Source: an uncultured Gemmatimonadales bacterium
Lineage (GTDB): Bacteria > Gemmatimonadota > Gemmatimonadetes > Longimicrobiales > RSA9
DNA length: 64,000 nucleotides
Assembly: GCA_963708135.1 (NCBI GenBank)
Contig: OY970192.1
Coordinates: 2,413,465-2,477,464, forward strand
Reading direction: 5' to 3'
The notes under the pieces are model-generated. The model worked only from the letters and a program-made list of their open reading frames with translations, was not told where the DNA came from and did no database searches. The position numbers were made by a program, and so were the translations under genes. Position 1 is the first letter of the stretch. Every line of letters starts with the position of its first letter. Shown one piece after another: positions 12,436-42,665 of this stretch.

Positions 12436-14533
12436 CTAACCCCGGACCTTCGCGATGATCTCGTCCGCCTTCGACTTCGGCATTTCCTCGTAGCGGGAGA
12501 ACTGCATCGAGTAGACGGCGCGTCCCTGCGACATGGAGCGGAGCGTCGTGGAGTACCCGAACATCTCGGAGAGCGGCACGCTGGCGCCGATCACATGGGC
12601 CTCGCCTCGCTGCGTCATGCCGCCGATCTTGCCGCGCCGGCTGGCGAGGTCACCCATGACGTCGCCCATGTACTCGGCGGGAGTCACGACCTCGACGTCC
12701 ATGACGGGCTCGAGCAGCACAGGGCTCGCGCGGCGGGCGCCCTCCTTCAGGGCCATCGAGCCCGCGATCTTGAAGGCCATCTCCGCTCGAGTCGACGTCG
12801 TGGTAGCTGCCGTCCACGAGCTCGACCCGGATGTCGACCATCGGGTAGCCGGCGAGAACGCCGTTCTCCATGGCTTCTTTCATCCCCTGCTCGGCGGGCC
12901 CGATGTACTCGCGGGGCACCACGCCGCCGACGATCTTGTCCTCGAACACGAAGCCCTGTCCGGGCTCGGCCGGATACAGGTTGATGACGACGTGGCCGTA
13001 CTGTCCGCGGCCGCCGGTCTGGCGGACGAACTTGCCCTCGACCTTCATGACCGGCTTGCGCACGGTCTCCCGGTACGCGACCTGGGGCCGGCCGATGTTG
13101 GCGTCGACCTTGAACTCGCGGCGCAGGCGGTCCACGATGATCTCGAGGTGCAGCTCGCCCATGCCGGCGATGATCGTCTGGCCCGTCTCCTGGTCCGTGT
13201 AGACACGGAAGGTGGGATCCTCCTCGGCCAGCTTGAGCAGGCCCTGCGAGAGCTTGTCCTGGTCCGCCTTGGTCTTCGGCTCGATGGCGACGTTGATCAC
13301 CGGCTCCGGGAAGCGCATGGCCTCGAGGATGATCGGGTGGTCGGCGTCGCTCAGCGTGTCGCCGGTTCTGGTGTCCTTCAGCCCGATGGCGGCGGCGATG
13401 TCGCCGGCGTAGACCTCCTCGAGCTCCTCGCGGTGGTTGGCGTGCATCTGGAGCATGCGGCCGACCCGCTCGCGCTTGTCCTTCGTGGCGTTGTAGATGT
13501 AGGAGCCGGCGGCCATGGAGCCGGAGTAGACGCGGAAATACGTCAGCTTCCCGACATACGGGTCGGTCATGATCTTGAAGGCGAGCGCGGCGAACGGCGC
13601 CTCGTCATCGGGGGCGCGCGTGTCCTTGGTGTCGTCGTGGTGCGGCAGATGCCCCTCGACCGCCGCCACGTCCAGCGGAGAGGGTAGGTAATCGACGACG
13701 GCGTTCAGCAGCTGCTGCACGCCCTTGTTCTTGAAGGCGGTGCCACACAGCACGGGCACGATCGCGTTCTCGATCGTGGCCTTGCGGATGGCGCGCCGGA
13801 TCTCGTCTTCGGTGAGCTCCTCTCCGCCCAGGTACTTCTCGAGCAGCTCCTCCTCGTGCTCGACCACGGCCTCCACGAGCTCGTGGCGCAGCTCCTCGAC
13901 GCGCGCCTTCAGGCCATCCGGCACCGGGCCCTCGGCCCACTTCGCGCCGAGCGACTCGTCGTCATAGACGAGCTCGACGCGGCGGATGATGTCGACCATG
14001 CCGGTGAAGAGCTCGCCCTCGCCGAGCGGCACGTGGATCGGGTGCGCCTTGGCGCCGAGACGGTCGCGGATCATGTCCACGACGTGGAAGAAGTCGGCGC
14101 CGACGCGGTCCATCTTGTTGACGAACGCGATGCGCGGAACGCCGTAGCGGTCGGCCTGGCGCCAGACGGTCTCGGACTGCGGCTCCACGCCGCCCACGGC
14201 GCAGAAGACGGCGACGGCGCCGTCGAGCACGCGCAGCGAACGCTCGACCTCGACGGTGAAGTCCACGTGGCCGGGCGTATCGATGATGTTGATCCGATAG
14301 CGCTCGTCGAAGCGGTCCCAGAAGGCGGTCGTCGTGGCCGACGTGATGGTGATGCCGCGCTCCTGCTCCTGCTCCATCCAGTCCATGGTGGCCGCGCCCT
14401 CATGGACCTCGCCCATCCGGTGCACGCGTCCCGTGTAGTAGAGGATGCGCTCCGTGGTCGTGGTCTTGCCGGCATCGATGTGGGCCATGATGCCGATGTT
14501 GCGGAGCTTCTGGAGCGGTGTCTTCCTGGCCAT
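12436..14533 (-). CDS. fusA: elongation factor G, reading frame broken by a 1-nt insertion near 12781-12789
   Basis: N-terminal 627-aa ORF ([19 protein letters not shown]) and C-terminal 114-aa ORF ([14 protein letters not shown]...) overlap in different frames; DVDSS|EMAFK junction restored by deleting one G in agcgGagatg. Confidence 0.9.
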
Positions 14534-14550
14534 ACCCGAACTCTATTCCC

Positions 14551-15021
14551 CTACCACCGGTAGTGAGCGAAGGCCTTGTTGGCCTCGGCCATGCGGTGGG
14601 TGTCTTCCTTGCGCTTGATGGCGCTGCCCTCGTTGCGGCTGGCGGCCATGAGCTCCGCGGCCAGACGCTCGGCCATGGACTTCTCCCCACGCCCGCGCGA
14701 AAAGCTGACGAGCCACTTCATGGCCAGCGCGTTGCGCCGCTCCGGCCGCACCTCGACCGGCACCTGGTAGGTCGCACCGCCGACGCGGCGGCTCTTGACC
14801 TCGAGCACGGGCTTGACGTTGTTCACCGCCTGCTTGAACACGTTCATCGCCGGCTGCCCGGTCTTCTCCTCGATGATGCGCATGGCCTCGTAGAAGATTC
14901 CCTCAGCCGTCGACTTCTTGCCGGCCAGCATCAGGTTGTTGACGAACTTGCTCACCGTCGTGGACCCGTACTGCGGGTCCGGCGGGACCTCGCGCTTGAC
15001 CGCTCGCTGGCGTCTGCTCAT
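14551..15021 (-). CDS. rpsG: 30S ribosomal protein S7
   Basis: Start [12 protein letters not shown] (cat 15019-15021), 156 aa. Confidence 0.9.
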
Positions 15022-15023
15022 GG

Positions 15024-40663: not shown

Positions 40664-41126
40664 CCGCGCGGAAGGCGCGCTCGACCTCCCGCTCGGCCGC
40701 GCGCTTCTTCAGGTCCTCGCGCTTGTCGTAGAGCTTCTTGCCCCGCCCGAGGGCGAGGGTCACCTTGATGTGGCCGTGGCTGAGGTAGAGGTCGAGCGGC
40801 ACGAGCGTGAGCCCCTTCTCCTGCACGGCACCGATCAGCCGCCGGATCTCGGAGCGGTGCAGCAGCAGCTTGCGCGGCCGGACCGGGTCCGTGTTCCAGC
40901 GGCTCGCGGGGTCGTACGGGCTCACGTGCATGTCGTGCAGCCAGACCTCGCCGCGGTCCACGCGGCCAAAGGCCTCGGCCAGGCTCGCCCTCCCCGCCCG
41001 CACCGACTTGACCTCGGGCCCGGTCAGCACGATCCCCGCCTCCCACGTGTCCAGCACGTGGTAGTCGTGGCGCGCCTTCTTGTTCCGGGCAAGGAATTTC
41101 CTCGTGTCCGTGCTGGGCTTGGCCAT
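40656..41126 (-). CDS. smpB: SsrA-binding protein
   Basis: 156 aa, NKKARHDYHVLDTWEAGIVLTGPEVKSVR...GHIKVTLALGRGKK. Confidence 0.95.
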   Translation of the reverse strand: MAKPSTDTRKFLARNKKARHDYHVLDTWEAGIVLTGPEVKSVRAGRASLAEAFGRVDRGEVWLHDMHVSPYDPASRWNTDPVRPRKLLLHRSEIRRLIGAVQEKGLTLVPLDLYLSHGHIKVTLALGRGKKLYDKREDLKKRAAEREVERAFRAGR

Positions 41127-41175
41127 GTGCGATCAATCTATCCGGCGGCGGCGGGCCGCGGAAGTCGTGGCGGGC

Positions 41176-41814
41176 TCAGTAGATGAGGACCGGCGTCCCC
41201 ACGTCCACCAGGTAGTACAGCTCGCGCGCGTCCTCGTTCGTGAAGCGGATGCAGCCGTGCGAGACGCGCCGCTCCGCGGGGTCCGGCCGGAGCACCAGGT
41301 CGGGGTGATCCGTGCCGTGCATCGCCAGCTCGTAGCCGATGTAGAGGGCCGTCGTGCCCAGCGTCCCCGGCTGCCGGCGGTCCGGCGCATCCGCCGACGG
41401 CACCGGCTGCCCCTCCTCAATGTAGGCCCAGTCCGGCTTCACCCACACCGGGTCCTTCTCCTTGCGCTCGACCCGGAACACCCCCCGCGGCGTGCCGAAC
41501 TTCCACGCCCGCTGGCTGTGCTCCAGCCGGAACCCCGTCCCCGTGGCTACGGGCGCGCTCCACAGCACCCGCCGCCCCTCGAGGACGTAGGCCCGGTTCT
41601 CCGCCAGGTGGATCACTACGTAGCGGCCCGGCGCCTCGAGCGCCGCCCGGTCGAGCACGGTCCCGGCGGCGGCGGCGGCGCCCACCTCCGGCGCAGCGGC
41701 GCCGAAGCGCAGCGCAATGCCGTCCGTGCCGTCCTGCGCGCCCGCGCCCCGGGGCGCGAGCGCCAGCAGCGCGAGGCCGAGCGCCTGCCCGGCCCGCGCC
41801 CACGTCCGCCTCAT
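41176..41814 (-). CDS. L,D-transpeptidase (YkuD domain) with signal peptide
   Basis: Start set at MRRTWARAGQALGLALLALAP; catalytic HGCIRFTNEDARELY near the C-terminus. Confidence 0.8.
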   Translation of the reverse strand: MRRTWARAGQALGLALLALAPRGAGAQDGTDGIALRFGAAAPEVGAAAAAGTVLDRAALEAPGRYVVIHLAENRAYVLEGRRVLWSAPVATGTGFRLEHSQRAWKFGTPRGVFRVERKEKDPVWVKPDWAYIEEGQPVPSADAPDRRQPGTLGTTALYIGYELAMHGTDHPDLVLRPDPAERRVSHGCIRFTNEDARELYYLVDVGTPVLIY

Positions 41815-42665
41815 CCCAGCCGCTCCTTCTGCCGTCTGCGGATCCGCTTCATCGCGAAGATCTGCGCCACCTCGCCGCCGAGGATGAACACCACGGCGGA
41901 GTAATAGATCCAGAGCACGAGTACCACCAGCGTGGCCAGGTTGCCGTACATCGAGGTGTAGTCCGCCAGGCTGGTGACGTACCAGGAGAAGCCCTGCTTG
42001 AGCAGCTCGAAGAGGACCGCCGTGAAGGTGGCCGCCACAATGGAGGTGCGCCATTGGGTGCGGCGCGCCGGCAGGTAGCGGTAGACGAGCACGAACATGA
42101 CCCAGATGGAGAGGAACGCCACCGCCTCGACGTAGACCTGGTGCGGGCCCGGCTGGTCGAGCTGGAACCCGAACACGCGCAGCCCGAAGCCCGCGATCAC
42201 GTCCACCGCCACCGTCAGGCCGACGTTCAGCGTGAACAGCGCGCCCGCCGCGAAGACCATCTTCACGTCGAAGATCTTGCCGGCAATGATGCCGCGGTCC
42301 TGGGCCAGGTCGAACACCTGCTTGAGCGTCGAGCGGAGCGTGCCGATCAGGCGGGTGGCGAACCAGATCAGCCCGACCATGCCGATGCTCAGCAAGCCCG
42401 TCGAACTGGTCCACCAGTCCGTGCAGCAGCTGCGCGATCCACTGCTCGAACTGCGGGCTCACGGGGGGAATGCTGCGCAGGACGATGTCGAGCAGCTTGC
42501 CGGTGGGATTGCCCTCCTGCTGGCGCAGGATGAAGCCGGCCATCCCCAGCACGGCCAGGATCAATGGGACGAAGGCGACGAGCACGTTGAACGCGATCGC
42601 CGCCGCCATGAAGAAGATGTCGTCCGCGCCCGCCTTGTCCCAGATCCGGCGGATGAAGTCCTGCC
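41811..42665 (-). CDS. YihY/BrkB-family membrane protein, frame broken by a 1-nt insertion near 42404-42406; start unresolved
   Basis: N-terminal part (IWDKAGADDIFFMAAAIAFNVLVAFVPLILAV...LLHGLVDQ) and C-terminal part (TGLLSIGMVGLIWFATRLIGTLRST...) are in different frames; deleting one base in cagtTcgacg joins them as LVDQSTGLLSIG; a G7 run at ~42650 may hide a second indel. Confidence 0.7.

Follow-up and report, generated by a model that had tools for sequence, protein, structure and literature searches.

Single surplus bases in five otherwise continuous genes of a Gemmatimonadota contig, including fusA, rpoC, and rpoB, are most probably residual long-read insertion errors

The genes fusA, rpoB, and rpoC, which encode EF-G and the beta and beta' subunits of RNA polymerase, are indispensable in bacteria. 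In a stretch of 64,000 nucleotides (nt) from an uncultured Gemmatimonadales bacterium (contig OY970192.1, positions 2,413,465 to 2,477,464; hereafter "the window", with all positions counted from its first letter), these three genes, a YihY/BrkB-family gene, and a lipoprotein gene each change reading frame in mid-course. The question raised by this locus is whether the five breaks belong to the organism or only to its sequence as deposited. We conclude that the feature is a technical artefact and not a biological one: every one of the five genes has one surplus base when compared with every relative, and these five bases are most probably residual insertion errors in a long-read consensus sequence.

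The window has a G+C content of about 70-75%, within a range of 63% to 78%. On the minus strand, which carries all five disrupted genes, the S10/spc ribosomal protein operons are followed by tuf-fusA-rpsG-rpsL-rpoC-rpoB-rplL-rplJ-rplA-rplK-nusG-secE, a second tuf gene, and then various housekeeping genes. In the protein database, the best matches of EF-G are proteins from Gemmatimonadota metagenome-assembled genomes (MAGs), at 88% identity, and among 185,579 species-representative genomes the best RpoC-encoding loci come from Gemmatimonadaceae and Longimicrobiales MAGs, at 89%. Exact searches for RpsL and EF-Tu gave no match, and neither the source genome nor a conspecific occurs in the collections that were searched. 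Gemmatirosa kalamazoonensis, whose PacBio genome has 72.6% G+C (PMC3974934), was considered as a source and discarded for want of any support. The assembly is itself probably a MAG of an undescribed Gemmatimonadota lineage.

The breaks were examined in three independent ways. In the homology test, the open reading frames (ORFs) of 160 related loci were compared with the window by tblastn; the second test was an alignment of the DNA with that of relatives; and in the third, which is based on codon usage, the whole 64 kb was divided into coding segments by a Viterbi algorithm with a model trained on the window itself. (An earlier coding-frame model, built from highly expressed genes only, was too noisy in the part with 75% G+C and was replaced by the window-trained one.) At every site, the alignment to a single homologue shifts by +1 frame and no residues are lost, and for the three conserved genes, fusA, rpoC, and rpoB, the DNA alignments show that every relative is one base shorter. 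The initial annotation had listed five single-nucleotide disruptions, each of which could be repaired by the removal of one base. All five were recovered within the intervals it had given, all of them as +1 events, and in all five genes the removal of one base restores a colinear, full-length protein.

In fusA (12436..14533, minus strand), the deposited sequence contains a 627-amino-acid ORF (12650-14533) and a separate 114-amino-acid ORF (12436-12780). The EF-G homologues (47 query ORFs) follow frame -1 down to 12785; their match in frame -2 starts at 12786. The surplus base lies at 12783..12784 (minus strand), where the window has GG and the relatives have a single G, at AGC-GAG, which encodes the Ser-Glu of the conserved DSSEMAF motif. 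In the DNA alignment, the relatives read TCGAGC-GAGATGG and the window reads TCGAGCGGAGATGG, so that the minus-strand context is GAC TCG AGC [G]GAG ATG. As deposited, EF-G is truncated in domain IV: according to Pfam, the EFG_IV domain of the 627-amino-acid ORF is cut at position 102 of 121, and EFG_C (domain V) is found in the 114-amino-acid ORF. The repaired EF-G has 698 amino acids, covers 100% of 698-amino-acid EF-G proteins, and is 88% identical to the EF-G of a Gemmatimonadota MAG.

The gene rpoC (15613..19963, minus strand) is represented by a 913-amino-acid ORF (17222-19963) with 904 native codons, and the approximately 545 codons that remain are found in a different frame (15616-17250). 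With 129 query ORFs, the switch from frame -1 to frame -2 was placed between 17252 and 17268. Because GEL is followed by Ile, Leu, or Val in the relatives (GEL-I/L/V) and the window has GAGCTCGATCCTC there, the extra base must be either the G at 17251 or the C at 17252 (17251..17252, minus strand) in GAGCT[C][G]ATCCTC, where there is no homopolymer; the minus-strand context in codons is GGC GAG CT[C][G] ATC CTC GAG. The deposited RpoC ends nine codons past residue 904, and the repaired RpoC has 1449 amino acids. In the distal frame, there is no ATG, GTG, or TTG between 17430 and 17103; in other words, the distal part runs for 49 codons past the junction without a start codon.

In the case of rpoB (19973..24149, minus strand), the break is hidden in a 1403-amino-acid ORF (19938-24149), in which the final approximately 297 codons are read in the wrong frame and extend over the start of rpoC; the true C-terminal 285 codons are in the frame of 19976-20827. 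The homologues (46 query ORFs) pass from frame -3 to frame -1 at 20827-20842. The surplus base lies at 20825..20839 (minus strand), within GG GTCTGTCGAGATG: from the Trp to the Leu of GW....LGFE, all the relatives have four intervening codons, and the window has 13 nt. With 13 nt standing against four codons, the identity of the extra base is ambiguous within 20825-20839, and the event is either a non-homopolymer insertion or the extension of GG to GGG. The repaired RpoB has 1391 amino acids.

The fourth gene (38170..39856, minus strand) encodes a lipoprotein conserved in the Gemmatimonadota, with the lipobox LSLPAC, and its repaired product of 561 amino acids is colinear with its homologues. 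At three homologous loci (L081, L082, and L126), the frame passes from -1 to -2 at 38364/38366, and the surplus base, at 38365..38366 (minus strand), is most likely the bracketed T of CAT[T]CTG, in the context GTG CAT [T]CTG GCG TGC GGC; across this junction the homologues read DS(V/M/L)(R/x)-L-x-CG. In the deposited sequence, the lipoprotein frame continues into pyrD and forms a 1049-amino-acid chimeric ORF (37205-40354). In several metagenome contigs from Gemmatimonadota, too, a homologue of the lipoprotein gene precedes pyrD. The gene had been labelled a tetratricopeptide-type (TPR) lipoprotein, and this label is not supported: the repaired 561-amino-acid protein matches no Pfam family at E<=0.001, and hence none of the TPR type, and the lipobox and the Gemmatimonadota homologues support only the putative name "conserved lipoprotein".

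The fifth gene encodes a YihY/BrkB-family membrane protein (PF03631; 41811..42690, minus strand, with an approximate start). Here, the homologous loci L084, L088, and L089 pass from frame -2 to frame -3 between 42406 and 42398. The surplus base, at 42397..42399 (minus strand), is most simply explained as GG extended to GGG, given the expected FDG-LLSIG, although the possible interval extends over 42387-42405. The minus-strand context is TTC GAC GG[G] CTT..., and removal of the base gives FDG-LLSIGMVGLIWF. In the repaired protein, PF03631 is matched without a break from position 3 to position 255 of 259 (E=1.1e-48; score 166.6 bits, gathering cut-off 33.7). As deposited, the N-terminal frame continues into the downstream YkuD L,D-transpeptidase gene, which results in a 604-amino-acid chimeric ORF (41176-42990).

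The segmentation by codon usage gave the same picture. In the whole 64 kb, it found exactly five same-strand frame switches without a stop codon, all on the minus strand, at 12786/7, 17250/1, 20852/3, 38368/9, and 42399/400, and when one base was deleted at each of the five sites, each gene became one continuous coding segment. When random one-base indels were simulated, 143 of 150 (95%) were found, including all 94 of those located at least 100 nt from the end of a segment. Further interior frameshifts in the 64 kb are improbable. Nonsense errors between neighbouring same-frame ORFs were also absent from the window, where all such ORFs are complete and separate genes, and a search of the window for indel-damaged transfer RNA (tRNA) genes found none.

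With regard to their local context, the initial annotation had described the insertions as mostly outside long homopolymers, and none of the five indeed lies in a run of four or more bases, though the window has 584 such runs. Three or four of the five would also fit the lengthening of a short run (from one to two or from two to three bases), a fit that about 50% would show by chance.

The comparison that bears most directly on the origin of these bases comes from public relatives. When the same homology test was run on the same operons of 80 species-representative loci, frameshifts were found in only four of them: L037 (MFD06229.bin.2.4), with two in rplA and three in rpoB (3564-9934); L056 (MFD01721.bin.2.149), with one in rpoC (at about 10458); L019 (MFD09964.bin.2.159), with one in tuf (at about 1583); and L048 (ERR2431957_metabat2_43), with one in rpoB (at about 5150). 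The first three are MAGs of the Microflora Danica catalogue, for which Nanopore reads alone were assembled with Flye and the result was given a single round of Medaka polishing (PMC12313526); that paper mentions two of the sample names. The Microflora Danica loci contain seven events in 136 kb, compared with a single event in 1.2 Mb in the other 74 loci. Six of the seven are +1 insertions, and several lie outside homopolymers, such as CTC[G]TAC in rpoC of L056, GGC[A]TCG in rpoB of L037, and CCG[C]GAG in L019. The window, with five events in 64 kb, three of them in the syntenic 23 kb, fits this class of events in density, direction, and context. An apparent sixth cluster of frameshifts in the window, at 25284-25543, was rejected: it was due to out-of-frame ORFs of high-G+C relatives and to the rplA frameshifts of L037 itself, and neither rplA nor rplJ is disrupted in the window.

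Indels that fragment genes have been documented in long-read assemblies, as described in the paper on the Kastor tool (PMC12007338). The five events resemble such Nanopore or PacBio assembly indels in that single-base events split conserved and even essential genes and leave the flanks intact, and they resemble the events of the Microflora Danica MAGs in that there is about one event per 10-20 kb and that +1 insertions predominate, several of them outside homopolymers. On the contrary, they differ from the classical long-read (R9) profile, which consists mostly of deletions in homopolymers of 4-5 bases, with insertions less bound to homopolymers (PMC12007338); the window events are all insertions, and none is in a run of four or more bases. 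The initial annotation had called the pattern unusual for homopolymer error, and this view is only half right: it holds for the classical profile but not for the Nanopore-only Microflora Danica MAGs. Because the events in the latter are also mostly +1 and partly outside homopolymers, the pattern in the window is not unusual for that type of data.

According to the explanation that we favour, the errors would stem from a long-read assembly, most likely one that was Nanopore-only or only lightly polished, or from low coverage. The same technical reading, of insertions into intact genes, had been proposed from the start, and it agrees with four observations: (i) the repair of all five genes; (ii) the lack of an excess of private substitutions, described below; (iii) the absence of the extra bases from relatives; and (iv) the occurrence of the same kind of lesion in Nanopore-only MAGs.

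Several points weigh against this explanation. All five events are insertions outside runs of four or more bases, which departs from the classical profile, dominated by deletions and by homopolymers (PMC12007338). The genes fusA, rpoB, and rpoC account for 17% of the window but hold three of the five events (post hoc P ~0.04). Furthermore, the sequencing technology and the status of the bases as errors that reads would not back are both inferred. It should also be mentioned that four of the five sites (12783, 17251, 20825-20839, and 42397) lie within 5 nt of a TCGA, a neighbourhood that covers 12% of the positions in the window (nominal P ~0.001). This motif was picked after inspection, which makes the test post hoc; once corrected for the choice of motif it falls short of significance, and the proximity is thus only suggestive; GATC showed no enrichment near the sites. 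In addition, the surplus base of both fusA and rpoB lies directly 5' of GAGATG. The insertion-only bias, the proximity to TCGA, and the excess in core genes may come from basecalling or polishing errors tied to a motif, to methylation, or to k-mers, from the mixing of strains in conserved genes, or from chance.

The alternative that survives best, which the initial annotation had also named, is that the bases were put one by one into a correct sequence after assembly, either deliberately or as synthetic test cases spiked into it. The uniform and simple form of the events (+1 in all five, with no long homopolymer) is what such an intervention might produce, three of the five hit the most recognizable essential genes, and the source genome turned up in none of the collections searched, where the nearest matches reach only 88% (EF-G) and 89% (RpoC). 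However, mostly +1 and often non-homopolymer events also occur in rpoB, rpoC, rplA, and tuf of genuine Nanopore MAGs, and it is because the pattern is so close to these genuine errors that we regard deliberate perturbation as unlikely. Random spiking would also favour no motif, whereas four of the five sites lie near TCGA (a post hoc observation that is weak after correction), and the resemblance of three or four of the events to short-run extensions, although about half could be so by chance, points in the same direction.

Could the frameshifts instead be genuine mutations, carried by the organism or by the dominant variant of the assembled population, so that the genes are pseudogenes or split genes? 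The surplus bases do stand in the sequence as given, and both fusA and rpoB have an in-frame ATG right past the junction (GAGATG), which is the reason why their distal pieces show up as ORFs. The state of the proteins, on the other hand, argues strongly against this. When the repaired RpoC, RpoB, and EF-G were aligned with 11-41 Gemmatimonadota orthologues, the numbers of private substitutions at otherwise invariant columns were 2, 0, and 4, respectively, no more than in typical relatives, which indicates that purifying selection on the three proteins is intact. The five genes have one lesion each and none further; a second lesion and an excess of substitutions are both absent in fusA, rpoB, and rpoC. 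The segmentation also shows that coding potential carries on in the shifted frame beyond each lesion, and the upstream frames continue through between 9 and about 400 junk codons. The distal part of rpoC, as mentioned above, has no start for 49 codons. The three essential genes are single-copy in the window, where no second copy of fusA, rpoB, or rpoC was found, and the closest relatives lack the insertions; indeed, the surplus base is absent at all five sites from all the relatives compared.

Real pseudogenes gather multiple lesions and substitutions, and they spare the sole copies of rpoB, rpoC, and fusA. The window shares with the pseudogenes of reductive genomes, such as those of Mycobacterium leprae and insect endosymbionts, the presence of frameshifts in recognizable genes, but the many lesions found there contrast with the single lesion per gene and the normal substitution load found here. 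For these reasons, genuine mutation appears very improbable, in keeping with the initial annotation, which had considered real pseudogenization implausible.

Even less probable is recoding, in which the extra bases would be real but bypassed through programmed +1 ribosomal frameshifting or transcriptional slippage. The same correction, the skipping of one base, would fit all five genes, and in this respect they resemble prfB, the gene for release factor 2, which also has one surplus base relative to a continuous protein and requires a +1 shift. The prfB site, however, is conserved across bacteria, carries a UGA in frame at the codon where the shift occurs, and is preceded by a Shine-Dalgarno-like stimulator, whereas the five sites in the window are neither conserved nor stop-bearing. 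None of them is conserved in relatives. They contain no 0-frame stop, no shift-prone codon, and no known shift-prone heptamer, the next stops being 44, 9, approximately 297, approximately 387, and approximately 407 codons further on; no re-pairing is possible at AGC|G, CTC|G, GTC|T, CAT|T, or GGG|C; and no motif is common to the five contexts beyond the weak, post hoc proximity to TCGA. As for slippage, its rescue of frameshifted genes requires long homopolymers, such as the poly(A) tracts of endosymbionts, and runs long enough for it are absent from the sites. That the bases are real and that full-length EF-G, RpoB, RpoC, and the two other proteins are made by some unknown context-independent +1 correction, at the level of messenger RNA or of translation, is hardly credible.

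Apart from the five disrupted genes, the window has several other features that should be described. In relatives, a cluster of tRNA genes, Thr(tgt)-Tyr-Gly-Thr(ggt), is located upstream of tuf within approximately 500 nt. In the window, this cluster is split over 28999-33577, with tRNA-Thr(tgt) at 33504-33577, tRNA-Gly at 29840-29913, and tRNA-Thr(ggt) at 28999-29072; neither a tRNA-Tyr gene nor a remnant of one was found anywhere in the window. Between tRNA-Thr(tgt) and tRNA-Gly lie approximately 3.6 kb that encode an NfeD-like membrane protein, a flotillin/Band_7 protein, and a DUF4382 lipoprotein, and tRNA-Gly is separated from tRNA-Thr(ggt) by a spacer of 770 nt, within which the sequence GGGTGG is repeated in 7.8 copies (29288-29334).

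The two copies of tuf, at 11230-12423 and 27770-28963, differ by three substitutions in 1194 nt, with one amino-acid difference (Asp/Glu), and their identity stops no more than 10 nt outside the coding region on both sides. Finally, a stretch at approximately 57.3-58.5 kb (57300-58500) has low coding potential, contains imperfect tandem repeats of 32-33 nt (58236-58355), and adjoins a gene whose Pfam matches, to LiaF-like_C and DUF1707, are weak and below threshold.

What, then, do the five surplus bases mean for the use of this genome? The window as deposited yields a truncated EF-G, a truncated RpoC, and three chimeric ORFs, in which RpoB runs into rpoC, the lipoprotein into PyrD, and the YihY-family protein into YkuD. 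These chimeric ORFs are long and have the appearance of intact genes. As a consequence of the split and chimeric ORFs, only polishing or the use of frameshift-aware tools will keep gene calls, phylogenies based on rpoB, rpoC, or fusA, estimates of completeness, and pseudogene counts for this genome from being wrong. Beyond this window, public Nanopore-only MAGs of high-G+C Gemmatimonadota carry +1 errors outside long homopolymers in their core genes, which is relevant when they are used as references. The value of the finding is practical only, and concerns how this genome and similar long-read MAGs are annotated and used in phylogenies. In the organism itself, all five genes would be intact, and the split and chimeric ORFs would exist only in the sequence file.

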